The notes: generated from the sequence alone by a model not told the origin. A stretch of 64,000 nt of DNA from an uncultured cyanobacterium (GCA_963803805.1 CAWDOD010000003.1:128001-192000), one strand, 5' to 3'; shown: positions 7,232 to 44,443, counted from the first letter of the stretch. Numbers and translations are program-made.

Positions 7232-8449
7232 TCAAGCGCTTCTTAAAGCAACAATCGGATCAAGTTTTGCTGCCTGCCTTGCGGGGACAACACCAAAAAA
7301 CAAGCCAATTCCTCCTGAAACCCCTACAGCAAGGGCGATGGCAACGGGAGAGATCCCCGCTTGTAAAGGAGTAACCGCACCAATCAAAACTACACCACCA
7401 ACACCAATTAAAGTACCAATTACTCCCCCAGCAGCAGAGAGGATTACAGCTTCAATTAAAAATTGAATTAAAATATCTTTTTGCTGTGCGCCAAGGGCTT
7501 TGCGTAAACCAATTTCTTGGGTACGTTCAGTCACAGAAACGAGCATAATATTCATAACACCGATGCCCCCAACTAAAAGAGAAATTCCGGCGATCGCCGC
7601 TAATAATAAAGTTAATGCTCCGGTGATTGTACCAGCAATTTGCAGGATATCTTTTTGAGTTTGAATACCAAAATCATCTTCTCCGGTAATCTTATGACGC
7701 TGACGTAATAAGTTGGTGATTTGAAACTTGGCAGCGCTGATACTTTCTTCATTAAGAGCAGAAATAGAAATCACACTAACTTCTGTACCATAAGGAGAAG
7801 TTCTACCAACAATTTGATTAGCTACTGTGGTTAAAGGAATAAAAACACTATCATCTTGATTAGTACCAAAAAAGGAACCTTTGCCCTTCATTACCCCAAT
7901 AATTTCTAAACTAATATTTTTGACTCTTAGCTGTTTACCTAAAGGATTTTCTTCTCCAAAAAACCTTTCAGCTATTTCAGCCCCTAAAACCACAACTCGT
8001 TTATTTCCTGTCACATCTAATTCGTTAATAAATCTCCCCTTAGCAACATCAAAACTCCTCACAGTCAAAAATTCTGGCGTTACCCCCAAAACCAAAGTAT
8101 CTTTGTTATTTGCTTTATAAGTCGCGACCGCTCTAGTATTAATTTGTGGCGAAACTTCATCAATAGCCCTAGCTTGAGAAGCGATCGCTTTAGCATCTTC
8201 TAAGACTAAAGTTTTGGGTAAATCAAAGGTTGTTTGACGAGCCTCTCTAGAACCAGGAATAATAAATAAAACGTTAGGACCAAGGGACTCAAACTGTTCT
8301 GAAGCCAATTTTTGCGCTCCTTGACCAATACCAACCATAGCAATTACCGAAGCGTTACCAATAATAATTCCCAGCATAGTTAAACTGCTACGCAATTTAT
8401 TAGCAACTAAAGTTGTACTAGCCATTTTCAGGCTTTCAAAAATATCCAT
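7232..8449 (-). CDS. MacB/FtsX-type ABC transporter permease
   Basis: NKLRSSLTMLGIIIG and ISLLVGGIGVMNIMLVSVTERTQEIGLRKALGA. Confidence 0.93.
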   Translation of the reverse strand: MDIFESLKMASTTLVANKLRSSLTMLGIIIGNASVIAMVGIGQGAQKLASEQFESLGPNVLFIIPGSREARQTTFDLPKTLVLEDAKAIASQARAIDEVSPQINTRAVATYKANNKDTLVLGVTPEFLTVRSFDVAKGRFINELDVTGNKRVVVLGAEIAERFFGEENPLGKQLRVKNISLEIIGVMKGKGSFFGTNQDDSVFIPLTTVANQIVGRTSPYGTEVSVISISALNEESISAAKFQITNLLRQRHKITGEDDFGIQTQKDILQIAGTITGALTLLLAAIAGISLLVGGIGVMNIMLVSVTERTQEIGLRKALGAQQKDILIQFLIEAVILSAAGGVIGTLIGVGGVVLIGAVTPLQAGISPVAIALAVGVSGGIGLFFGVVPARQAAKLDPIVALRSA

Positions 8450-34550: not shown

Positions 34551-35210
34551 ATGGTTCAAGCTCCCATAACTTCCTCTACAACACTCTATCCTGATTCTGA
34601 CGGTAAACCAATGGCTGAAAACACGGTGCAGTATGGTTGGATAGTCCGCTTAGTAACTAACCTCAAGCAATTATTAAAGGATGAGACTGCTTTTGTGGCT
34701 GGAGACTTGCTCTGGTATCCAGTGCCGGTAGAAACTCCCCCTGCACCTTGTCAAGCACCGGATGCAATGGTGGCTTTGGGTCGTCCTGATGGAGACAGAG
34801 GTAGCTACAAACAGTGGGAGGAAGAGAACATTGCGCCCCAAGTAGTATTCGAGATTCTTTCACCGAGCAACACTAGGAAAGAAATGCTTTCCAAGCAAGC
34901 TTTTTATGAGAAGTATGGAGTTTTAGAGATGTTTTTCTATGACCCAGATACTCAGGACTTCTGGGGTTTTGCCCGTGAGAGTCGGGAGGGAAATTTTTCC
35001 TTAGTTACACCTCTACATTTACCTTGGACTTCAACCGTATTGGGGATCAGATTTGAGTTGTACTCAGATGGTTTAGCAGTATTTTATCCAGATGGGGAAA
35101 GGTTCAAAGATCCAGGAGAGTTTGCCCAGGAGCGCGACCAAGCTCAAGCGGAGCGTGACCGGGCATTTGCTAAGCTCCGTGAGTTGGGGATTGATCCGAA
35201 TACGCTCTAA
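34551..35210 (+). CDS. Uma2 family endonuclease
   Basis: YPDSDGKPMAEN, APDAMV, PQVVFEILSP; LRELGIDP tail. Confidence 0.9.
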   Translation: MVQAPITSSTTLYPDSDGKPMAENTVQYGWIVRLVTNLKQLLKDETAFVAGDLLWYPVPVETPPAPCQAPDAMVALGRPDGDRGSYKQWEEENIAPQVVFEILSPSNTRKEMLSKQAFYEKYGVLEMFFYDPDTQDFWGFARESREGNFSLVTPLHLPWTSTVLGIRFELYSDGLAVFYPDGERFKDPGEFAQERDQAQAERDRAFAKLRELGIDPNTL

Positions 35211-35244
35211 AAGCTTGTCTACTAACCTAAAATGTAGCGGGTAA

Positions 35245-35311
35245 GGTGGGTGGGCAAACTACGTCAATTTAACAATTAATTTCACCAATTATATCCATTT
35301 GCCCACCCTAC
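35245..35311. repeat. REP-like palindrome (GTAG/CTAC type)
   Basis: gggtgggcaaa...tttgcccaccctac, an 11-bp perfect stem; followed by a 20-bp tandem duplication ctacaagat..gcgatc.ca (35308-35347). Confidence 0.55.
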
Positions 35312-35580
35312 AAGATATGCGATCACACTACAAGATCCGCGATCGCACTTAACAACGCTCCTCTCCTTTATATGGTTTCCAAAAGTATTTCGGTTTAAAA
35401 GGTACAAAACCTGGAGGTTGGTTTAGATATTCGTATATCTCCTCAGATACTACTAATCCATTAAAAGGTATATCAGTAAGACTATCCATGTCCAATAGCT
35501 CATGGTAGTACCTAAATTCATCTACTTCTACACCAACTAATGCGTATCGGAAGTCGTTAGCTGAACGTAAATGTTGATAC

Positions 35581-36592
35581 ACGTGAGTTCGATGAAGTTA
35601 AAAAACAGCAGAAGGAAGTTCAGCTAGGCCTTTGGGGTCAAGGTCAAGGGAAGGCTTTTTGGGCAAGAAAGTATAAGCGATTAGACCAGCTAAGAGATTA
35701 ACCAAAAAATTCCAAACGCTACGGTGTCTTGAATGCTGAATCTGACAGATATTCTTGAGCTGGTCATTAACAGTCTCAATCAGAGAACGCTTACGTAGGA
35801 GAATCTTATCCTGAAGACGCATTAACTTCGGCTTCATATTTTTCTTGCGGTGTGTAATCAGTTGTAGTCTTTGTTCATAGAGTTTCTCAAACAAATCCTG
35901 AGAAATATAACCTCGGTCGCCAAATAACTTACCAATCAAGCCATCAGCCATATCTGGCACAGGGTTACGGTCATCAGTATTACCCTCTGTAAGTTTGAAA
36001 GCAAGCAGCTCACCTTTGTCATTAATAATTAGATGTAGCTTGAAGCCATAATGCCATCCCATAGCATTTTTGCCCCAACCTACCAAACCTTCAAAAACAC
36101 GGTGGCTTTTGGAGCGATTCGGGTGGCAGACCTCAATGGGGGTAGAATCAATAAAGCTGATGCCGGTAATTTCTCCTCGAAGAGTATGTAGAAAACAGCA
36201 AAGAAGCATTAAGCTCCACGGCATTAGCTCTACGAATCGAGTGTAACTGACCAAGTTGGGAAAAGCTTTCTTCCAGTAAGGCAAGACTTGTAGAGTGTAA
36301 AATTCTTTAAAAGTGCGAAATCCCGAACCATGAAAGGCAATGACAATGGTCATCACTTCGCTTAGGCTTAGGCGGGAGCGACATAGACGCTCTCCACAAG
36401 TTGCTGTTAACATTGGCTGTTGTTGCCAATGCCTCTCAAACCTTTGATAAAAGTCATCTACCTGACAGAATATTTGGGTGATATCGAGACGAGATACAAT
36501 ATTGGACATAGCATCAGATTCTGATTAAGATTCATTTTCAGCATACCTCTGATGCTTTTCTTTTCTCTCTTTTTCCTCCGTCGAACTCACGT
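35581..36592 (-). mobile_element. IS982 family insertion sequence (1012 bp)
   Basis: Perfect 12-bp TIR ACGTGAGTTCGA at both ends; direct repeat TGATAC at 35575-35580 and 36593-36598. Confidence 0.92.
35598..36509 (-). CDS. IS982 family DDE transposase
   Basis: SEVMTI, SYTRF, FIDSTP, YGFKLH, GDRGYIS, KRSLIETVNDQLK. Confidence 0.93.
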   Translation of the reverse strand: MSNIVSRLDITQIFCQVDDFYQRFERHWQQQPMLTATCGERLCRSRLSLSEVMTIVIAFHGSGFRTFKEFYTLQVLPYWKKAFPNLVSYTRFVELMPWSLMLLCCFLHTLRGEITGISFIDSTPIEVCHPNRSKSHRVFEGLVGWGKNAMGWHYGFKLHLIINDKGELLAFKLTEGNTDDRNPVPDMADGLIGKLFGDRGYISQDLFEKLYEQRLQLITHRKKNMKPKLMRLQDKILLRKRSLIETVNDQLKNICQIQHSRHRSVWNFLVNLLAGLIAYTFLPKKPSLDLDPKGLAELPSAVF

Positions 36593-36884
36593 TGATACAG
36601 CAAATGACCTAACTCTGTCATCATGTAGGCATCTTGGAAAGTGTGTACGCCACACTCACTAATTCCTTGAGGATAAACATTACACCACCAATCTACTGAA
36701 GAATTTTCTTCTGTGTGATGAACACTCACTTGACAATCAAATTTGCGTCCGTCTGGTAGCAGCAAATCTAATCCTGTAAAGTGTTTAGCGAGCGCTTCTG
36801 CTTGTGGCTCAGAGTTACATTCAACACAAAGACTAAATAACCAACCCATATATTTTAGAATCGATATTTGACTATACCCAGCTT

Positions 36885-37487
36885 TCACGAAGTTTCATAG
36901 CGTATCCAGTGACGGCTGATAGCTTTATCCAACTCTCCGAAAGGATATTCTTCTTCATAAGACTCCTTTAAGGCTAACAAGAAGGTCAGAACTGCCTTTC
37001 CTTCTTCAGGGGTCAAACTTTCGAAGCGCTCATGAAACGCGGCTAGTGACTCACCAGAGTCGAACGATTCTAATGCCTGTTTCCTGTTCAGTTCCAGAAT
37101 ATCATCCGGGAGACCGGGAGAACACTGAGCAAGATAGTTATAGCTTTCTACTATATCATTGCGAGATAGCTTGGTAAGTATATCTATCAGTGCATCTACA
37201 AAAATACGGACGGAGTAGAATGATTTTAGGGAATAGTAGAGGAAAGCAGGTAAAAAATATAGCAATGCCTCCGGAGTCAGCGCTACAATATCACCTCCTA
37301 TTTCATAACGCATCTCCTGAGCAGTAAGTTCTATGGGGGTTATCGTAGCTAGAAACTGACCCAATTTTTTATATTCGTACTGCACTAGGGGTTCTGGTGC
37401 TAATATCTGAGTAGCTAGGGGTCGAGGGCGTGAGGCAAAGGCATTAAAGAAATATGCTTTCAGGTCTTTGTCAGGAGGTATTTGCAT
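36885..37487 (-). CDS. Hypothetical protein, candidate cognate immunity protein (DUF6714-like)
   Basis: Lies 16 bp downstream of the toxin gene; LTPEALLYFLPAFL motif; the family call is from memory and unverified. Confidence 0.6.
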   Translation of the reverse strand: MQIPPDKDLKAYFFNAFASRPRPLATQILAPEPLVQYEYKKLGQFLATITPIELTAQEMRYEIGGDIVALTPEALLYFLPAFLYYSLKSFYSVRIFVDALIDILTKLSRNDIVESYNYLAQCSPGLPDDILELNRKQALESFDSGESLAAFHERFESLTPEEGKAVLTFLLALKESYEEEYPFGELDKAISRHWIRYETS

Positions 37488-37503
37488 ATCATCGCGAGAT
37501 TAT

Positions 37504-38826
37504 CTAGTGTGCTTGTTGAATTTGCTTCCGGATTGACTCAAGCGCCACTATCACTGCTGCAATCCCTGCTGATATAGCACCAACTGCAACCACGGCTTGA
37601 ATGGCTTTCCCAAGTGCAATAATTGCAATAATAAGTCCAACTATTGCAGCAATAGTTAATCCTGCTTCGATGAGCTGCCGAGAGCGTTCGACCACTTCCT
37701 GCATAGCTCCGACTAATTCTTGTGGACATTTATACTTGTCGAAGTTCCTATAGCAACGCATCATGTTGTTGTTTAGTTGTGTTATGTGCTCACGATGTTT
37801 TCTATTACCGCCCCTAAAGCATTTAGTCATTATCACAGTCCGTGCTGAAAGTTCTGCTGCAATAGCAGCTATCTTAGTTGCTAGAGTTGGGCAGTCGTCC
37901 TTATTACTGCATCCACCAAGTTGACCTTTGACTTTTTTAGTTGCCTCTACTGCTGCCCGCAAAGCCTTATATTCCAGATCACTACAGTCTCCTGGAGGCT
38001 TCATACCATCACCAGGATAAAGTTGTACTAATTGACTTACCGCCATCTCGGTGTTTGTTTTTTTACTTTGAATATTTGTATTGCTGCGCTCATTAATAGA
38101 CTGTTGTTGAATGCCTGGTGCAGATCCTTGTTGCACCACATGGGTCAACTCATGGGCAACCAACTTCTGCCCCTCAAGACTCCCAGGATTATACTCGCCT
38201 TGCTTAAAAAAGATATCCTGCCCCGTAGCAAACGCCCGTGAATGCAAAGAGCGATTTAACTGATTAGCATTACCATCAGTATGTACCTTCACCCCACTAA
38301 AATCTGCTCCAAAAACCCGCTCCATCGGCTTCTTAATCTTCTCAGATAGCCCCTGACCACTACCCCTTGCTCCTTGGATACTTTGCTCCACACCAGGGTC
38401 AACTCCTCCCCCAGCAACTCCACCATGACGCATCACCGTTGGTTTAACTACTGGTTCTACTTTTGTTTGTACTGATTCATTAAAGCCAGGAGAATTAATC
38501 TGTTTAACCACCTTTGCTGCTGTGGCATCAGCTTCCTGTTCATACTTATCCCCTGGTTCCCCTACCGTTAACTTAGTTTGTACCTCTAAGTTTTCTTCTT
38601 TCTCCTGACCTTCACAAGCATCACACTTAGTTTGAATAGAATTACTCAAATAACTTTTACCTACCTCAGAAGCAATTGGCCGCTGCCAACCTGCCGTTTC
38701 TTCGGTACTCTGCCATCTGCCCGTTGCTGGTTGAATACCAACCGTAGGTGGTTTAAAGGAGGAAGATGGGGGGGAATGACTGGGAGGAGTCCAGTGAGAA
38801 GACTTGCTGGTGTGGGTTTTACTCAT
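37504..38826 (-). CDS. DUF4157 (eCIS core) domain polymorphic toxin with an Ntox16-like tip and a hydrophobic tail
   Basis: VQTKLTVGEPGDKYEQEAD; FGADFSGVKVHTD...RAFATGQDIFF...AHELTHVVQQ (HExxH); tip PPGDC...C...C...AR...KCFRGG..H...C. Confidence 0.85.
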   Translation of the reverse strand: MSKTHTSKSSHWTPPSHSPPSSSFKPPTVGIQPATGRWQSTEETAGWQRPIASEVGKSYLSNSIQTKCDACEGQEKEENLEVQTKLTVGEPGDKYEQEADATAAKVVKQINSPGFNESVQTKVEPVVKPTVMRHGGVAGGGVDPGVEQSIQGARGSGQGLSEKIKKPMERVFGADFSGVKVHTDGNANQLNRSLHSRAFATGQDIFFKQGEYNPGSLEGQKLVAHELTHVVQQGSAPGIQQQSINERSNTNIQSKKTNTEMAVSQLVQLYPGDGMKPPGDCSDLEYKALRAAVEATKKVKGQLGGCSNKDDCPTLATKIAAIAAELSARTVIMTKCFRGGNRKHREHITQLNNNMMRCYRNFDKYKCPQELVGAMQEVVERSRQLIEAGLTIAAIVGLIIAIIALGKAIQAVVAVGAISAGIAAVIVALESIRKQIQQAH

Positions 38827-38968
38827 AAAACCTCTGGGAATGTAGGAGAAAAAGTATAACTTTTTGTTGCTTTTAAGGTTATCTAATTTCTTTTAAGCTA
38901 ATACTTTGACTAAATATATCTTAACGTCAGTATTCATAGGGAACTAAAACTTTTGGGAGAGAAAAGTA

Positions 38969-40963
38969 ATGGCTATAATTGCAACTCCTGATCAGAATGA
39001 AATTAACTCAAATAACCTCATCACTGCCTTAACTCCTATTTACCAGGACTTAATCAACTATGCTCAACGTCAACAACAGCAAGAAGTTGAGGAAAAACCA
39101 ATTGATGTTATCTCAGAATTAGAAGCGATCGCATCTTCTCTCCCTCACTTAGAAAAGCTTTGTCAAACCTTCACCCTTTCTACCTTTGAGCGTAACATCC
39201 TCTTACTCTGTCTTTGTCGAGTAGTTTTTCCCGATGCTCCTTACTGGTTAACCCAAGCCCAAGGTAATCCCCGTGCAGATTATCCTACTCTGGGTTTGGC
39301 TTTGCAACTATGGCAAGATAACCATTGGAGCGCTGTAACTCCCACATCTTCTTTACGTCGCTGGCAACTGCTATTAGTTGACACTAACCAAGAAGATATT
39401 ACCCTGGCTCCCTTAAAAGTTGATGAAACTATTCTGCACTATTTAATGGAGGAAGATTACTATGATGCACAACTAGCCCGTTTCCTCAAGCCTTCAACTA
39501 TTCAAAGTTCTCAACTCCCTACATCTCACCAACAAATAGCTACTAATCTTATCAACATTTGGTCACCTTCATCTACCTACAATACAGTACCAATTGTGCA
39601 GTTATGTGGCCATTCACTAACTACCTGTGAAGAAATTGCGATTGCAGCCTGTCAGGAAAATAATTATCCCCTCTACTACCTTTCTGCTTCTCGACTACCT
39701 AACAACCCCGATGAATTATCATTTTTGCTGCAACGCTGGCATCGGCAAGTCAAGTTAATTGGTGGTGTGTTGTTGTTGGATTGTCATAACCTTCATCACA
39801 CAGACATGGTTAGGGAAGAAGCTATCTCTCGGTTAGTGGAAGATATAGAAACCCCCTTAATAATTTGCAGTGAGAAAAGGAAAAGTTGGCCCAGGCGGGA
39901 GGCGATCGCCTTTGACATACCTCAATTAACTCACGAAGAACAACTGGCACTGTGGCAAACTAATTTAGGTGAAGCAACCTCTCAACTGAATGGTACTGTA
40001 GAATCCCTGGTAACTAACTTTAGCCTCAGTAGTACAAAGATTAAAACTGCTTGTTTAACCACAACGGAACAGCAACAGCAAACTCCCTTAGCAGAACAAC
40101 TTTGGCACTTTTGTCGCACCCAAGCCCGTCCCCAATTAGATGATTTAGCACAACGGGTAGAAAGCCAAGCTACCTGGGAAGATTTGATCCTGCCGGAAAA
40201 AACAAAGAGTCTGTTGCAGGAATTAGCCAGCCAGGTACGCCAAAGGGCAAAGGTTTACCAAAAGTGGGGTTTAGCTAAACGTAGTGTTAGGGGTTTGGGA
40301 GTGAGTACCTTGTTTGCTGGGGAGAGTGGTACAGGTAAAACCCTGGCGGCTGAGGTTTTGGCGAACGAGTTTAAATTGGATCTCTATCGCATTGATTTAA
40401 GTAGGGTTGTAAGTAAGTATATTGGCGAGACGGAGAAAAACTTAGAGCGTATTTTTAGCGCAGCCGAAGGAGGGGGAGTAGTTTTGCTTTTTGACGAAGC
40501 GGATGCTCTTTTCGGCAAACGCACCCAGGTTAAAGATAGTCATGATCGCCATGCTAATGTAGAAGTTAGTTTCTTGCTACAACGGATGGAAGCATATCAA
40601 GGTTTAGCGATTTTAACCACAAACCTCAAAGAATCCCTCGACCAAGCTTTTCTGCGCCGTCTCCGTTTTATTGTTTCTTTTCCCTTTCCCGATGCTGATA
40701 GTAGAAGCAAAATCTGGCAACGGATGTATCCTCAACAAACCCCAACTAAAGGATTGAACTATGAAAGCTTAGGTCAACTATCGGTAACTGGGGGCAGCAT
40801 CCGCAACATTGCCCTTAATGCAGCTTTTCTCGCGGCTGAAGCTCAAGAGGCGGTGATGATGAAGCATATTTTGATAGCAACTAAGGCTGAGGCAATGAAA
40901 ATTGAAAAAATCCTCACTGATCGTGAAATTGCTGGTTGGATAACTGAAAGTTATGATTTTTAA
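38969..40963 (+). CDS. AAA+ ATPase, Afp15/Pvc15-like (eCIS-associated type)
   Basis: N-terminal LCQTFTLSTFERNILLL domain; degenerate first AAA module; Walker A FAGESGTGKT, VSKYIGETEKNL, Walker B LFDEAD, DQAFLRRLRF. Confidence 0.85.
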   Translation: MAIIATPDQNEINSNNLITALTPIYQDLINYAQRQQQQEVEEKPIDVISELEAIASSLPHLEKLCQTFTLSTFERNILLLCLCRVVFPDAPYWLTQAQGNPRADYPTLGLALQLWQDNHWSAVTPTSSLRRWQLLLVDTNQEDITLAPLKVDETILHYLMEEDYYDAQLARFLKPSTIQSSQLPTSHQQIATNLINIWSPSSTYNTVPIVQLCGHSLTTCEEIAIAACQENNYPLYYLSASRLPNNPDELSFLLQRWHRQVKLIGGVLLLDCHNLHHTDMVREEAISRLVEDIETPLIICSEKRKSWPRREAIAFDIPQLTHEEQLALWQTNLGEATSQLNGTVESLVTNFSLSSTKIKTACLTTTEQQQQTPLAEQLWHFCRTQARPQLDDLAQRVESQATWEDLILPEKTKSLLQELASQVRQRAKVYQKWGLAKRSVRGLGVSTLFAGESGTGKTLAAEVLANEFKLDLYRIDLSRVVSKYIGETEKNLERIFSAAEGGGVVLLFDEADALFGKRTQVKDSHDRHANVEVSFLLQRMEAYQGLAILTTNLKESLDQAFLRRLRFIVSFPFPDADSRSKIWQRMYPQQTPTKGLNYESLGQLSVTGGSIRNIALNAAFLAAEAQEAVMMKHILIATKAEAMKIEKILTDREIAGWITESYDF

Positions 40964-41085
40964 GTTATTTTGAGCAGCTTTTATGTTCCTCATATCTGTT
41001 GTCTCGTCTTGTGGTTGTATTGTCATAAAAATTATTATTTTGGCTGAGATGACTTTTAGGAATTCTGGCATTTTGATAGTCAACG

Positions 41086-42081
41086 CTACTTCAACAAATC
41101 TCGCCGGGGTTTAAAAGTTTCCACTTCTCGCAACTTCTCATACAATTCTTTTTCTTCAGGGCTAATTTCTTTAGGAATAATCACCTCTATTTCCACCAAT
41201 TGATCGCCCCGCTTCCCCTCTGCATCGGGATAACCTTTATTAGCTAAGCGTAATCTTTGACCAGATTTTACTCCTGGGGGAACATTCATCTTCACCAAAC
41301 CATCAAGGGTAGGCACTTCCACTGCCCCTCCTAAAACTGCTTCTGTGGGAGTTAAAGGCACTTGACAAAAAATCTCGTTCCCTCGTAAAGCGAAAAAGGC
41401 ATGAGGTTTAACCGTCATTTTTAAATAAAGATCCCCACCATTAATCCCTTGCCCCCGGAGACGAATCTTCTGTTGATCAACTATCCCTGCCGGCATTTCA
41501 ACTTCCAAAGAACGTCCATCTTCTAAACGAATACGTTCTTTCCCTCCTTGGTAAGCTTTTTCTAGGGGTAAAGTTAACCTAGCTTCGACATTACGGCGAC
41601 TTTTCTTAACCACAGGAGGGCGATCGCGATCATTTCCTCCTACGGTATAAGCGCTTTTAGTAGTTCCTGGGCGATAGGCATCTTTAGTAGTAATCCTAGT
41701 ACTAGGTGGTCTAGTTTTAACTCCCACTCCTGTTTCTCTGCGCCTACCCATCAACTGGTCAATAAAGCTATTAAAATCGCCATACTGACTGTAATCCACA
41801 CCCCGGCTAGTACTACTTCTTCCTCCAGCCGCCTTGCCTTTACGAAAGCCTTTCTGCTGCCAATAACGACTAAATTGGTCATACTCTGCCCGTTTAGCCC
41901 CGTCGGAGAGAACTTCATAAGCTTCCCCAAGATCCTTAAACTTCTCTTCAGCAATTTTATCCCCCGGATTTAAGTCAGGGTGGTACTTCCGGGCTAATTT
42001 CCGATAAGCCCGTTTAATCTCTTCTGCTGAGACATCTTTACTAATACCAAGAATCTCGTAGTAGTTACGGAAGTTTTGCAT
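41086..42081 (-). CDS. dnaJ: DnaJ-class chaperone (J-domain plus C-terminal domain, no zinc finger)
   Basis: HPD motif (KYHPDLNPG); downstream of dnaK3. Confidence 0.9.
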   Translation of the reverse strand: MQNFRNYYEILGISKDVSAEEIKRAYRKLARKYHPDLNPGDKIAEEKFKDLGEAYEVLSDGAKRAEYDQFSRYWQQKGFRKGKAAGGRSSTSRGVDYSQYGDFNSFIDQLMGRRRETGVGVKTRPPSTRITTKDAYRPGTTKSAYTVGGNDRDRPPVVKKSRRNVEARLTLPLEKAYQGGKERIRLEDGRSLEVEMPAGIVDQQKIRLRGQGINGGDLYLKMTVKPHAFFALRGNEIFCQVPLTPTEAVLGGAVEVPTLDGLVKMNVPPGVKSGQRLRLANKGYPDAEGKRGDQLVEIEVIIPKEISPEEKELYEKLREVETFKPRRDLLK

Positions 42082-42205: not shown

Positions 42206-44443
42206 TTAAAACCAATCATCATCCTCCTCATCCCAATCATTTTCATATTCATAACGTCGGGGACGGTTTTTGCTGTTACGTTGGGGTTGGTATTCTTCAT
42301 CCTTGGGGCGGCGGGATCGGCGATCGCTGCGGTTCTCTTTGTATCCGTCGTCGTAAGAATCGTTGTAACGGGGCTGAGGACGTTCCTCATAAGGCTCTCT
42401 GTAGCGAGGTTGAGGGCGTTCCTCATAAGGATCTTTGTAGCGAGGTTGAGGGCGTTCCTCATAGGGATCTTTGTAGCGAGGTTTGGTGCGATCACCGTAG
42501 TCATCATAAGCACTTCCGCCGCTATATCCTGGCGAAATTCTAGGATTGTAGGGGGCTTCGTAATCAGGATCTTTTTCCCCGGTGAAGGTGCGTTTAATCG
42601 AACCAAAGAAGTCGTCTTCTTCGTCTTCATATTGCATCCTGATTTCTCTATTCAATTCATATAAGGTATCTTGTAAATCAGATTGCGCCCTATCTATACC
42701 CCTTTCGTCATCTTTTTCTAAGCTATTACGCATCTCCGCGATTAAAACTTCAATGCGACGGCGATAATAACTAGCAAATTGGCTACCAAAATCTAGGGTT
42801 ACTTCCCGGAGTCGCCTTTGGGATTGATCTATCAAAGCTTGGGCGCGATTACGTTTTTCGATTCTTTCCCGGCGTTCCCGATCTAATTGCGAAAACTCCT
42901 CCGCTTCCCGAATCATTTTGTTGATTTCTGTTTCGCTGAGGGTAGATGCCCCTTGAACAGTAACGGTTTGTTCTCTGCCAGTGGTTTTATCCATAGCAGA
43001 GACTTGGAGAATGCCATTAGCATCAATATCAAAAGCGACTTGAACTTGGGGTATCCCTCTAGGGGCAGGAGGAATACCTGTGAGTTTAAAACGTCCTAAT
43101 GATTTGTTGTCACCAGCCATTTCCCTTTCCCCTTGGAGGACATGGACTTCTACCATGGTTTGGTTGTTTTCCCCGGTAGAAAAGATGTCGGAACGGCGAA
43201 CGGGAATGGTAGTGTTGCGGGGGATGAGTTTTTTTGTTACTCCACCAATGGTTTCTAAACCCAAGGAGAGGGGGGTAACATCCAAAAGAAGAACGTCTTT
43301 GATTTCTCCCCCTAAAATCCCCGCTTGAATTGCTGCCCCCACTGCCACAACTTCATCAGGGTTAACATTTTGGTTGGGTTCTCGGTTAATCAAACTCTCC
43401 ACCAACTCCTGTACCATGGGAATACGAGTAGAACCCCCCACCAGTACCACGTCATCAATTTGTCTGGGGGTTAAGCCTGCATCCACCACAGCCCGTTTTA
43501 AGGGGCGGCGTAAGCGATTTACCAAATCCCCACACAATTCCTCAAACTGATTACGAGTTAACTGGGTTTCAATATGTTTTGGCCCCTCGTCTGTGGCGGT
43601 GATGAAGGGTAAGTTTATTTCTGTAACTGAAACCCCAGAAAGTTCAATCTTGGCCTTTTCCGCCGCTTCCATTAATCTTTGCAAAGATTGGCGATCGCGC
43701 CTTAAATCTACTTTTTCTGTTTCTAGGAACTGTTCGGCTAACCAATCAACAATTTTACGATCAAAATCATTGCCCCCTAACTGAGTATCACCGCTAGTAG
43801 AACGAACTTCAAATACTCCATCTCCCACTTCAAGGACAGAGACATCAAAAGTTCCTCCCCCCACATCAAATACGAGGATGGTACGATTATTTTTCTGTTC
43901 CAAACCGTATGCTAAAGAAGCAGCCGTAGGTTCATTAAAAATCCTTAAAACCTCCAACCCAGCAATCTTGCCGGCATCCCTAGTCGCTTGCCTTTGGGAA
44001 TCATTAAAATAAGCAGGAACTGTAATCACTGCCCCGGTAACTTCTTCCCCTAAATAACGACTAGCTTCTTCAGCTAGCTTCCGCAAAATCTTGGCCGCAA
44101 TTTCTTCCGGGGCGAATTCTTTACGCAAGCGAGGACACCTAATTTTGGGATTACCATTTTCATCCCGGCGAATGGTGTAGGGAACTTGCTTCGATTCTGG
44201 GGTTAGTTCTGAATACTTGCGCCCAATCAGACGTTTACCCCCATAAAAAGTGTTCTGAGGATTAAGAACAGCCTGCCTACGGGCCATTTGCCCCACCACC
44301 AACTCCCCATCTTTATTAAAACCAACTACAGAAGGAGTGGTGCGTGTTCCTTCTGAGTTTGGAATCACAATTGGCTTGCCACCTTCCATAACTGCTACTA
44401 CGGAGTTGGTTGTTCCCAAATCTATGCCGACTACTCTGCCCAT
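42206..44443 (-). CDS. dnaK: Molecular chaperone DnaK (DnaK3 type)
   Basis: [17 protein letters not shown] and DVGGGTFD; extended C-terminus ending WDEEDDDWF, typical of cyanobacterial DnaK3. Confidence 0.96.
42365..42482 (-). repeat. 36-bp intragenic tandem repeat in the DnaK3 tail ([12 protein letters not shown] x3+)
   Basis: gta(g/a)cg(a/g)gg at 42365, 42401, 42437 and 42473. Confidence 0.85.

Follow-up and report, generated by a model that had tools for sequence, protein, structure and literature searches.

The cassette described here is, at a probability of roughly three in four, a satellite module of cargo, immunity and loader genes that belongs to the single, dispersed contractile injection system (CIS) of an uncultured cyanobacterium. 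It lies in a window of 64,000 nucleotides (the whole stretch of DNA analysed). The reading as a satellite cargo-plus-loader for a distant CIS, one of two offered by the initial annotation, is supported by the CIS encoded in the genome, the eCIS-type ATPase, the recurrence of the gene pair and a credible immunity gene. The functional genes of the region appear to be three, coding for a cargo toxin, a DUF6714 protein and an AAA+ ATPase, and all three were open with their catalytic motifs kept. The features are as follows.

35349..35580, minus strand: split gene, C-terminal part (homologue alignment)
35581..36593, minus strand: IS982-family insertion sequence, 1013 bp, with transposase at 35598-36509
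36594..36849, minus strand: split gene, N-terminal part; a conserved cyanobacterial hypothetical of about 175 aa, outside the cassette
36885..37487, minus strand: candidate immunity protein, 200 aa, DUF6714 family (Pfam, linkage to Ntox16, predicted complex)
37504..38826, minus strand: candidate CIS cargo toxin, 440 aa, with disordered N-terminal region, DUF4157/PVC-metallopeptidase, linker, Ntox16 helical domain and hydrophobic two-helix tail
37510..37650, minus strand: hydrophobic helical hairpin at the toxin C-terminus, aa 393-439 (relatives' alignment and model)
37750..37995, minus strand: Ntox16 domain, aa 278-359 (PF15523), with R329, H344 and six conserved cysteines
38122..38349, minus strand: DUF4157/eCIS_core zincin domain, aa 160-235 (PF13699), HExxHxxQ
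38527..38544, minus strand: YEQEAD motif, aa 95-100, part of a confidently modelled helix (aa 94-110, pLDDT 84-92)
38827..38968, no strand: divergent intergenic region, 142 bp between the toxin and ATPase starts
38969..40963, plus strand: AAA+ ATPase, 664 aa, Afp15/Pvc15/Cis15 family, cyanobacterial 'satellite' clade (domains, homology, tree)

The head-to-head arrangement of toxin (37504-38826, minus strand) and ATPase (38969-40963, plus strand) across a divergent gap of 142 bp was borne out, and the flanking genes were two Uma2 genes and one for DnaJ (Pfam), as claimed. The description of the cassette as stand-alone holds for the window and fails for the genome, which encodes one CIS on other contigs. 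Both promoters, which are putative, presumably sit in the region 38827..38968. A scan of positions 35200-41200 gave 10 promoter-like and 6 terminator-like sites, compared with 11.3 and 5.2 in shuffled sequences, and hence no signal. The whole genome of 5.3 Mb contained only 9 DUF4157 matches, yet at three of its ATPase-family loci at least one such match adjoined the ATPase gene, so the pairing of ATPase and DUF4157 is more than chance.

Pfam analysis agreed with the earlier view of the minus-strand gene as a DUF4157 HExxH protein with a C-terminal toxin-like domain, showing PF13699 followed by PF15523 (Ntox16). The eCIS_core/DUF4157 match at aa 160-235 had an E-value of 5.5e-30 (103.8 bits, cut-off 22) and the Ntox16 match at aa 278-359 an E-value of 8.5e-19 (68 bits, cut-off 25). 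The zincin motif was intact (HELTHVVQQ), and the Ntox16 residues R329 and H344 were invariant, with N341-x-x-H344, across 19 sequences. In the predicted structure, pLDDT was below 50 for aa 1-87 and 93-96 for the DUF4157 part (aa 141-240), while the C-terminal domain was confidently helical; the Ntox16 domain formed a four-helix bundle, and the tail helices spanned residues 392-412 and 417-439. The hydrophobic hairpin formed at the C-terminus was retained in most Ntox16 relatives and is a possible membrane-insertion element. The YEQEAD motif was conserved in the relatives of the toxin and common to eight proteins of this genome (8 six-frame matches), three of them without DUF4157; it may serve for recognition within the loading region. 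The toxin tips varied between paralogues and homologues of the DUF4157 protein, and the C-terminal domain showed a dN/dS of 0.34 relative to the same-genus copy. A fold search of the model against the PDB returned generic helical bundles and nothing at E 0.001 or better, and a sequence search against the PDB produced nothing meaningful.

Two tightly linked hypothetical genes had been reported after the toxin, both as candidate immunity genes. The first stood: it is a 200-aa ORF (36885-37487, minus strand) beginning 16 bp after the toxin gene, and conserved linkage and the model uphold it as a candidate. The second is a gene piece cut by IS982 and has no toxin linkage elsewhere. The 200-aa protein matched DUF6714 at 28.4 bits (cut-off 27) and had 67 relatives, most of them with PF20461. 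A DUF6714 gene followed directly after Ntox16 in 5 of the 7 cyanobacterial Ntox16 loci found in 401 genomes; the other two were the weakest Ntox16 matches, and ankyrin genes came next. The predicted complex of toxin and DUF6714 protein had an ipSAE of 0.90 (runs 0.90, 0.85 and 0.91), the best of 3 controls being 0.01. Of solved complexes, 116 of 157 reach the mark set for this tool, as do 2 of 215 mismatched pairs, counts that apply only approximately with our own alignments. At least 77% of contacts were shared between runs, the partner had a pLDDT of at least 89, and the modelled interface took in toxin residues 339-343 and 345-350. The model supports binding of the DUF6714 protein to the Ntox16 toxin, and the gene, with a dN/dS of 0.40 relative to its same-genus copy, is a credible immunity gene of this toxin. 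DUF6714 as an exclusive partner of Ntox16 was rejected, as 10 of the 15 cyanobacterial genomes that encode it have it away from any Ntox16; the neighbours in the 10 loci checked were housekeeping genes (tocopherol cyclase, PsbP), or else DUF6714 was fused to Cys_rich_CPCC. A literature search on DUF6714 found no paper.

The two parts of the split gene aligned to residues 1-82 and 82-152 of one 174-aa homologue. The IS982 transposase matched NF033520 at 265 bits (cut-off 130), and the element had inverted arms of 28 nt, with a direct repeat of 5-8 bp, GTATC(AAC), present at each end. The transposase occurred at 14 places in the genome, 100% identical at 12 of them, and the DNA of the element was 100% identical to 8 other copies. 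The GTGA overlap noted between the two genes is probably not the start of the second one: 51 of 53 homologue matches began within residues 11-18 of the ORF at 36538-36888, and 36 began at residue 14 (Met14), so the real start is probably the ATG at 36849, which is 35 bp past the stop of the 200-aa gene. The split gene was rejected as a second immunity gene: 33 of the 151 genomes of the order carry its family, some of them lacking the cap gene, and in genome G029 the homologue and the ATPase-toxin pair were about 0.6 Mb apart.

The ATPase contained PF22977 (WHD, a winged-helix region) at aa 35-172 and PF00004 at aa 448-571 (E 1.1e-25), with Walker A (GESGTGKT), Walker B (LLFDEAD) and an arginine-finger segment (RRLRF). 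It is of the classic-clade (Cdc48-like) AAA+ type, its best solved relatives being p97/Cdc48 D2 (E about 3e-30). Gene neighbourhood and homology to Afp15 confirmed the Afp15/Pvc15-like identity first assigned to it, placing it in an eCIS family. By tblastn, aa 393-614 were 50.9% identical to Afp15 of the Serratia entomophila plasmid (E 1e-60), whose gene sits between the tape-measure and DUF4255 genes; the N-terminal 390 residues gave no alignment to Afp15 in the same search. Neighbourhoods were counted in the best 80 of 569 ATPase relatives, one locus each. A cap gene (Pvc16_N/DUF4255) lay directly upstream, co-directional and within 1 kb, in 64 of these 80 loci, a DUF4157 gene lay within 1.5 kb downstream in 43, and at least one CIS gene was present in 70. 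The window ATPase is not beside a DUF4255 cap gene, which is on contig C2; since cap-gene adjacency is a positional feature, the assignment to the eCIS family stands and the type of locus differs. No curated NCBIfam cut-off was reached by the ATPase, and the best match, IteA, stood at 97.5 bits (cut-off 510), so no named equivalog was assigned. PF22977 was rejected as a marker of eCIS ATPases because another protein in five cyanobacterial genomes matched it at full length; that protein is about 500-550 aa (one frame 802 aa), and its five genomes lack both the cap gene and DUF4157. Relative to the same-genus copy, the dN/dS of the window ATPase was 0.12 over 660 codons, which indicates purifying selection at the sequence level.

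A whole-genome search for tail genes revealed one dispersed CIS on other contigs, in line with the original statement that the window has no tail genes: sheath, tube, cap and VgrG mapped only to contigs C2 and C4. The CIS genes were located as follows.

C2:292-298 kb: sheath, three tubes and cap
C4:344-348 kb: gp25, Baseplate_J and P2_I
C4:522-527 kb: CIS_tube, VgrG and PAAR

The local HMM inventory of the genome gave 1 sheath, 3 tubes, 1 cap and 1 VgrG. The genome carries exactly one CIS, spread over at least three loci. Neither a tape measure nor a tail fibre could be recognised in the genome, and the spike locus is cut off by the end of contig C4, so the CIS may be incomplete. The toxin is not within about ten genes of a CIS operon; as every CIS structural gene is on a contig other than that of the cassette, the link between cassette and CIS rests on co-occurrence and homology. 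When 13 regions upstream of genes in cassettes and CIS loci were compared by a crude method, no regulon motif emerged, and the sole 11-12-mers common to three of these regions were the ribosome-site/start regions of three paralogous toxin genes on contig C8.

Among 201 cyanobacterial genomes, the cap gene was present in 26 and the window-type ATPase in 22, all 22 of which also had the cap gene. DUF4157 was present in 29, of which 25 had the cap gene, and the remaining 4 matched at only 25-62 bits. The co-occurrence of ATPase and cap gene (22/22) and the CIS of this genome leave without support the other reading first offered, in which no contractile tail is involved and the toxin is processed or exported by the ATPase together with the DUF4157 peptidase. 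An ATPase clade outside the structural operon and the lack of a tail gene in the 64-kb window, as within 10 kb of the homologous pairs L023 and L040, would fit such a system. Against it, a homologous pair on a plasmid of strain PCC 7112 adjoins baseplate genes, no secretion signal domain was found on the toxin (Pfam) and no membrane channel gene in the cassette, and we regard it as highly improbable.

Phylogenetic analysis placed the window ATPase in an all-cyanobacterial clade (SH-aLRT 98); every cap-gene-linked copy in the tree fell outside it. At least six other cyanobacterial genomes and one plasmid also carried the divergent ATPase/DUF4157 pair, with other tips. The pairs were as follows.

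L023 (DUF4157 plus ATLF-like), L030, L040 (Ntox11), L108, L109 and the same-genus L152
Oscillatoria nigro-viridis PCC 7112, plasmid pOSC7112.04: pair adjoining P2_I, baseplate and gp25 genes

All six head-to-head pairs fetched from other genomes fell in the clade of the window ATPase, carrying different toxin tips, and the orientation was found in this one clade only. The clade is old and covers several cyanobacterial families, so detachment from the structural operon represents a stable state rather than a recent breakage. Genomes G029 and G173 retained a cap-linked ATPase alongside the satellite ATPase.

In the present genome, a sister module on contig C2 had a frameshifted ATPase separated from its toxin by IS630. 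Beside the PAAR and VgrG genes on contig C4 lay a 463-bp, internally deleted ATPase relic, in which three pieces of the window gene are joined end to end (DNA identity 96.6-98.4%). The genome kept only two intact full-length ATPase genes, and the same-genus copy of the toxin was interrupted. Given an IS-ridden genome, damaged sister modules and this interrupted toxin, some decay of the CIS is possible. That the cassette is itself a disused fragment of an IS-broken CIS locus would agree with these remains and with the 14 places of IS982, one of them inside the neighbouring gene. It is nevertheless unlikely in view of three open genes with catalytic motifs, the low dN/dS of the ATPase and the age and family range of the satellite clade.

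The ATPase could also serve the whole CIS, in assembly or for all cargo, with no special tie to the neighbouring toxin, its adjacency to DUF4157 then being a relic of an ancestral operon order of ATPase followed by DUF4157. That order is seen inside the operon in the 43 loci counted above (best 80 of 569 relatives), and the eight YEQEAD proteins outnumber the two intact full-length ATPase genes. The head-to-head arrangement, however, is not the operon order and was seen in one clade only (6 of 6 pairs fetched from other genomes); G029 and G173 hold both kinds of ATPase; and the window and C2 modules, which share ATPase and cargo N-terminus at 65% and 55% identity, were duplicated with both parts together. 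A general factor of this kind is accordingly a doubtful but serious alternative to the satellite module. A more specific form of the satellite reading is proposed tentatively: an old cyanobacterial loader lineage outside the operon, in which each satellite ATPase may be dedicated to the adjoining cargo through its extreme N-terminus, would let one tail machine be armed from several exchangeable loader-cargo-immunity modules, with G029, G173 and this genome running general and dedicated loaders.

From the gene content and the models, we infer loading by the window ATPase, delivery by the CIS, toxicity and protection. The cargo toxin would consist of a disordered N-terminus with the YEQEAD helix, the DUF4157 zincin and the Ntox16 effector with its hydrophobic hairpin. 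In the cytoplasm, the DUF6714 protein would cover the conserved [DN]xxH face of Ntox16 and protect the producer and struck kin. The ATPase would recognise the disordered N-terminus, unfold the cargo and thread it into the tube of CIS particles made from the genes on contigs C2 and C4.

Cargo choice and loading are the least understood step of eCIS and restrict the application of these systems to protein delivery. Should satellite ATPases prove cargo-specific, loader and N-terminal signal would be portable matched pairs, a two-gene module could arm one particle with chosen cargo, and paralogues within one genome would form a natural specificity panel. The DUF6714 neighbour would be the first candidate immunity family for Ntox16, and this the first function proposed for DUF6714. 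The plasmid module of Oscillatoria nigro-viridis PCC 7112 offers a cultured strain carrying such a pair. If none of this holds, the locus is an orphan CIS effector locus of a type already counted by surveys.

Table 2 and the text of Zhang et al. 2012 (PMC3482391) list Ntox16 for cyanobacteria with a PVC export route and PVC-metallopeptidase; the Fig. 4D legend states that PVC-AAA adjoins such toxins, and the text describes Microcoleus chthonoplastes as rich in them. The cassette shares with these toxins an N-terminal PVC-metallopeptidase followed by a variable tip. The table gives no immunity protein for Ntox16 and describes many PVC toxins as lacking immunity genes, whereas here a DUF6714 gene is a conserved neighbour of Ntox16. 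The head-to-head pair may already be drawn in the figures of that paper; the literature found, with figures and supplements outside its coverage, held no description of detached head-to-head ATPase-toxin modules. In Geller et al. 2021 and Danov et al. 2024, DUF4157 is a marker of CIS cargo, the eCIS-associated toxins (EATs), with many per genome in filamentous cyanobacteria (18 predicted in Moorena producens); 88% lie within ten genes of the operon, whereas the present toxin is on another contig with its own ATPase. The thylakoid-anchored CIS of Anabaena sp. PCC 7120 has two DUF4157 effector candidates, alr3311 and alr3312, according to Weiss et al. 2022 (PMC8894136). Both genomes combine a cyanobacterial CIS with DUF4157 proteins, but the Anabaena effectors flank a single compact 15-gene cluster and the present CIS is spread over at least three loci.

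With Afp15 the window ATPase shares an AAA module at the identity given above; the Afp15 gene lies between tape-measure and DUF4255 genes, whereas the window gene is detached. Pvc15 is reportedly a loader as well, acting with PVC payloads, which are not known to carry DUF4157. For AlgoCIS of Algoriphagus machipongonensis, a preprint describes the cargo proteins Cgo1 and Cgo2 with an NTD-DUF4157-CTD scheme, in which loading depends on the NTD and is mediated by Alg15 (10.64898/2026.05.27.728243). The present toxin resembles them in its disordered N-terminal region, which would serve for loading, its DUF4157 domain and its variable C-terminal effector, and its presumed loader is an AAA+ ATPase of the same family. 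The cargo and ATPase of AlgoCIS and PVC are encoded within the structural operon or at its end, whereas here they are on another contig, head-to-head, accompanied by a candidate immunity gene and with an ATPase of a separate cyanobacterial clade.

The window covers 128001-192000 of contig C3, and its cassette genes were as follows:

37504-38826, minus strand: toxin ORF of 440 aa, with PF13699 (eCIS_core, formerly DUF4157) at aa 160-235 (E 5.5e-30) and an Ntox16 domain (PF15523) at aa 278-359 (E 8.5e-19)
36885-37487, minus strand: ORF of 200 aa matching DUF6714 (28.4 bits, barely above the cut-off of 27)
38969-40963, plus strand: ATPase ORF of 664 aa, with a PF22977 winged-helix region at aa 35-172 and a PF00004 AAA module at aa 448-571

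The toxin and ATPase starts lay 142 bp apart on opposite strands, the gap from the toxin to the 200-aa ORF was 16 bp, and the zincin motif of the toxin (HELTHVVQQ) and both Walker A and Walker B of the ATPase were intact. The ORF geometry, the Pfam domains and the intact motifs confirmed the initial annotation of a DUF4157 toxin head-to-head with an AAA ATPase. The cassette was flanked by two Uma2 genes, a DnaJ gene and a DnaK-like gene. The DnaK-like gene (42206-44443, minus strand) carried a long C-terminal extension with tandem repeats of a 12-residue type, and the opposite-strand ORFs at this extension are likely repeat artefacts.

The second hypothetical gene downstream of the toxin, annotated initially as a linked cassette member, did not hold up as one, being cut by an insertion sequence and belonging to a family also present in genomes that lack genes of contractile injection systems (CIS):

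35581-36593: IS982 copy (NF033520, 265 bits; 28-nt inverted arms; short direct repeat at the ends)
35349-35582: C-terminal part of the split gene, a 77-aa ORF

A 116-aa ORF combined the N-terminal part with IS-encoded residues. Against a 174-aa homologue, the two parts matched residues 1-82 and 82-152, with a shared boundary residue. Homologues begin at Met14 of the ORF, which makes the GTGA overlap an unlikely start. The IS982 transposase occurred at 14 places in the source genome and was 100% identical at 12 of them, which indicates a recent insertion. The split-gene family (about 160-190 aa, with no Pfam model) was present in 33 of 151 genomes of the order; because some of these had no CIS genes, and the member in genome G029 lay far from that genome's ATPase-toxin pair, the gene was treated as a bystander. 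A repeat scan showed two tandem 20-nt units, 85% alike, just 3' of the split gene (35304-35343), followed by an inverted-repeat-like stretch.

For the ATPase family, one genome per species was scanned with an alignment of four paralogues, giving at least 600 stretches and at least 569 relatives. The best 80 of these were kept and their loci read with iterated local profiles seeded from the source genome's own genes. These 80 were mostly 40-50% identical (best segment) over the full length and came from more than 10 phyla including archaea. Among the same best 80 of at least 569, a co-directional cap gene (Pvc16_N/DUF4255) lay at most 1 kb upstream of the ATPase in 64 loci, a DUF4157 gene at most 1.5 kb downstream in 43, and at least one CIS gene was found in 70, while four of the 10 loci without one were short contigs. 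The AAA module was 50.9% identical (E 1e-60) to a Serratia entomophila plasmid ATPase encoded between tape-measure and DUF4255 genes, which is Afp15 by gene position. The Afp15 match and the cap and CIS gene neighbourhoods therefore make the assignment to the eCIS ATPase family sound. PF22977 (WHD) was ruled out as an eCIS marker, with full-length matches in five genomes without a cap gene or DUF4157. Another protein, of about 500-550 aa (one frame of 802 aa), gave full-length PF22977 matches of 95-153 bits in genomes G017, G038, G047, G141 and G025.

Family searches of the whole genome, with Pfam scans of the matches, showed that the source genome encodes one CIS, split over three loci:

Contig C2, 292-298 kb: a sheath and three gp19-type tubes sharing a strand; the opposite strand carries a LuxR-type response regulator and a Pvc16_N/DUF4255-TIG cap
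Contig C4, 344-348 kb: gp25, a 734-aa Baseplate_J protein and a Tail_P2_I protein
Contig C4, 522-527 kb, near the contig end at 528.8 kb: CIS_tube protein, VgrG, PAAR, IS1 and the remains of an ATPase gene

Profiles seeded from the genome's own genes and run in all frames gave exactly 1 sheath, 3 tubes, 1 cap and 1 VgrG, and neither a tape measure nor a tail fibre could be identified among its CIS genes. The ATPase remains (C4:521467-521929; 7468-7930 of excised locus L019) formed a 463-bp relic beside IS1, PAAR and VgrG, made of three non-adjacent pieces of the window gene (39608-39696, 40112-40286 and 40753-40944) joined head to tail and 96.6-98.4% identical to it in DNA. The spike locus therefore once carried a very recent copy of the window ATPase gene, since lost through internal deletions.

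The initial annotation had offered, besides a satellite cargo-plus-loader module for a distant CIS, a system in which the ATPase and the DUF4157 toxin work without a contractile tail. Among 201 cyanobacterial genomes sampled, the cap gene was present in 26, DUF4157 in 29 and both in 25, the four DUF4157 matches in genomes without a cap gene scoring 25-62 bits. The ATPase type, counted as a WHD match on a frame of 600-750 aa, was present in 22 of the 201, and all 22 also carried the cap gene; as the sample includes related genomes, this means "not found without" rather than proof. In this sample the tail-independent alternative was left with no room. In Oscillatoria nigro-viridis PCC 7112, plasmid pOSC7112.04 carries an ATPase gene head-to-head with a DUF4157 gene of 1076 aa, at a distance of 85 bp. 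Downstream of the ATPase gene, phage-tail (P2_I-type), baseplate and gp25 genes run towards it, so the same module occurs next to tail genes as well as away from them. The reading as a satellite module of the dispersed CIS was retained as the most likely one.

In a FastTree phylogeny of 84 rows, the window ATPase and one on contig C2 grouped as sisters in a clade (support 98) of 10 rows, all cyanobacterial and none cap-linked. In an IQ-TREE quick search (LG+G4, 50 rows), to which 18 ATPases from the sampled genomes were added, this satellite clade expanded to 15 rows (SH-aLRT 98), with none of the 21 cap-linked rows inside. Besides the ATPases of the window, C2 and C3b and six others, it included those of all six head-to-head pairs taken from other genomes; the C3b row sat on a long branch and its exact placement is unsure. 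The partners in the six pairs included a tip with an anthrax-lethal-factor-like peptidase domain (L023), an Ntox11 protein without DUF4157 (L040), and tips of no recognised type (L030, L108, L109), the sixth pair being the same-genus locus L152. Two genomes (G029, G173) held both ATPase kinds, the cap-linked outside the clade and the head-to-head inside.

The source genome contained nine DUF4157 matches and further ATPase paralogues:

Contig C2, 205-211 kb: sister cassette, ATPase 65% and cargo N-terminus 55% identical to those of the window; 857-aa toxin; IS630 between the two genes; ATPase frameshifted near residue 594
Contig C3, 198000-204300 (L013), 7-12 kb past the window end: third cassette, three DUF4157 genes facing an N-terminally short ATPase
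Contig C9, 22531-26170 (L014:7517-11170): full-length ATPase of another clade, head-to-head with a 448-aa protein

One DUF4157 gene of the third cassette had a serum-amyloid-A (PF00277) C-terminal domain; small ORFs, each about 136-139 aa long, lay between its DUF4157 genes, and a DUF4288 gene and a transposase were nearby. The C9 ATPase fell in a different group (support 94), whose eight copies included no directly cap-linked one and three with co-directional DUF4157 genes. Its 448-aa partner had no Pfam match, a Q/S-rich N-terminus and a stretch resembling PD-(D/E)xK by eye, and may be a DUF4157-less cargo nuclease. The motif YEQEAD was common to eight proteins of the genome, three of them without DUF4157, which by this N-terminal motif are candidates for further CIS cargo:

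C2:1003056-1003640: open frame
C2:1031381-1032370: open frame
C8:130749-132506: open frame

YbjN-domain proteins were encoded repeatedly just 3' of long DUF4157 toxins, at three unrelated loci (C2:919965-924242, excised as L016; L109; pOSC7112.04, L169), and may be chaperones or immunity proteins of the adjoining toxins.

A bolder reading, that the satellite ATPase is dedicated to the neighbouring cargo, is held only tentatively. It is favoured by the restriction of the head-to-head orientation to one ATPase clade, by the coexistence of satellite and cap-linked ATPases in G029 and G173, and by the duplication of the window and C2 modules as ATPase and cargo N-terminus together. An extreme N-terminal "KSSxWTP"-like motif common to five head-to-head cargo proteins (window, C2, same-genus genome G415, L023 and L030) adds support; it was not found in the head-to-head cargo of L040, L108 and L109.

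The AlphaFold2 model of the toxin, from 19 sequences (mean pLDDT 69), placed a confident helix carrying YEQEAD (aa 94-110) after a disordered N-terminus (aa 1-87). The DUF4157 domain (pLDDT 93-96) and a four-helix domain (aa 283-387) were separated by a disordered linker (aa 241-277), and two hydrophobic helices (aa 392-439) came last. No solved structure was found to match the fold. R329 and H344 were invariant in the alignment, in agreement with the Ntox16 signature "R, [DNE]xxH" (Zhang et al. 2012, Table 2, PMC3482391), and six cysteines and the hydrophobic tail were also kept.

Ntox16 was rare, occurring in 6 of 401 cyanobacterial genomes at 7 places. A DUF6714 protein was the next gene in 5 of the 7 (window, L110, L116, L112 and L114), that of L110 being 53% identical to the window protein; the two weakest Ntox16 matches had ankyrin-repeat genes next. 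DUF6714 itself was matched in 15 of the 401 genomes, by a six-frame search that missed the weak copy of the source genome, and at 10 loci checked it stood beside housekeeping genes or was fused to Cys_rich_CPCC; the family is thus wider than a partner of Ntox16. The Cys_rich_CPCC domain was N-terminal in three genomes (L117, L121, L122), and in other genomes a stand-alone DUF6714 gene followed tocopherol cyclase or PsbP. When toxin aa 262-392 and the 200-aa protein were modelled as a complex, with a separate alignment for each chain, the runs gave ipSAE scores of 0.90, 0.85 and 0.91, and the best of three controls gave 0.01. Among reference cases, 116 of 157 solved complexes and 2 of 215 mismatched pairs pass the score mark, a calibration that is only rough for own alignments. 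The runs shared at least 77% of contacts, partner pLDDT was at least 89, and the predicted interface comprised toxin residues 339-343 and 345-350, around the [DN]xxH motif. The modelling supports binding of the DUF6714 protein to the Ntox16 domain. In the part of Zhang et al. 2012 (PMC3482391) consulted, the Ntox16 entry gives no immunity protein, and no mention of DUF6714 was found in the literature searched.

The cassette of G415 was 80-84% identical in DNA to that of the window and lay in a different neighbourhood, with the dnaJ and Uma2 matches on other contigs. Its ATPase was 85% identical in protein and its candidate immunity gene 72% identical, with a second DUF6714-like gene after it. 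The toxin gene was interrupted by about 1 kb, and a 269-aa ORF joined the YEQEAD region straight to Ntox16, without DUF4157. Between the two genomes, dN/dS was lowest for the ATPase (0.12) and higher for the C-terminal part of the toxin (0.34) and the candidate immunity gene (0.40). Purifying selection acts on the ATPase; the toxin and its candidate immunity gene evolve faster, as is typical of such pairs.

By analogy with Cgo1/Cgo2 and Alg15, and with the PVC payloads and Pvc15, we infer every step of the following working. The ATPase would recognise the disordered toxin N-terminus, unfold the toxin and thread it into the tube of CIS particles whose genes lie on C2 and C4. In the producer, the Ntox16 domain would be kept inactive by the DUF6714 protein, which would also shield kin struck by the toxin. 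Once delivered, the helical domain may be carried to a membrane by the hydrophobic hairpin, and DUF4157 may release or refold the effector. Natural DUF4157-less forms exist among the toxin relatives and in G415, and in AlgoCIS, according to the part of the report consulted, DUF4157 is dispensable for cargo loading (10.64898/2026.05.27.728243).

In comparison with known systems, the toxin and ATPase are of the same kind as the PVC-metallopeptidase toxins with PVC-AAA neighbours in the consulted part of Zhang et al. 2012 (PMC3482391), the toxin is of the same kind as the EATs in the consulted parts of Geller 2021 and Danov 2024, and the ATPase is one of the loader ATPases, already a known kind. 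Figures or supplements of key papers may already show head-to-head ATPase-toxin pairs. As far as the available text of these papers shows, the new elements are a cyanobacterial ATPase clade outside the structural operon and head-to-head with polymorphic cargo, DUF6714 as a candidate Ntox16 immunity family, and a near-identical, deleted relic linking the window ATPase to the spike locus.
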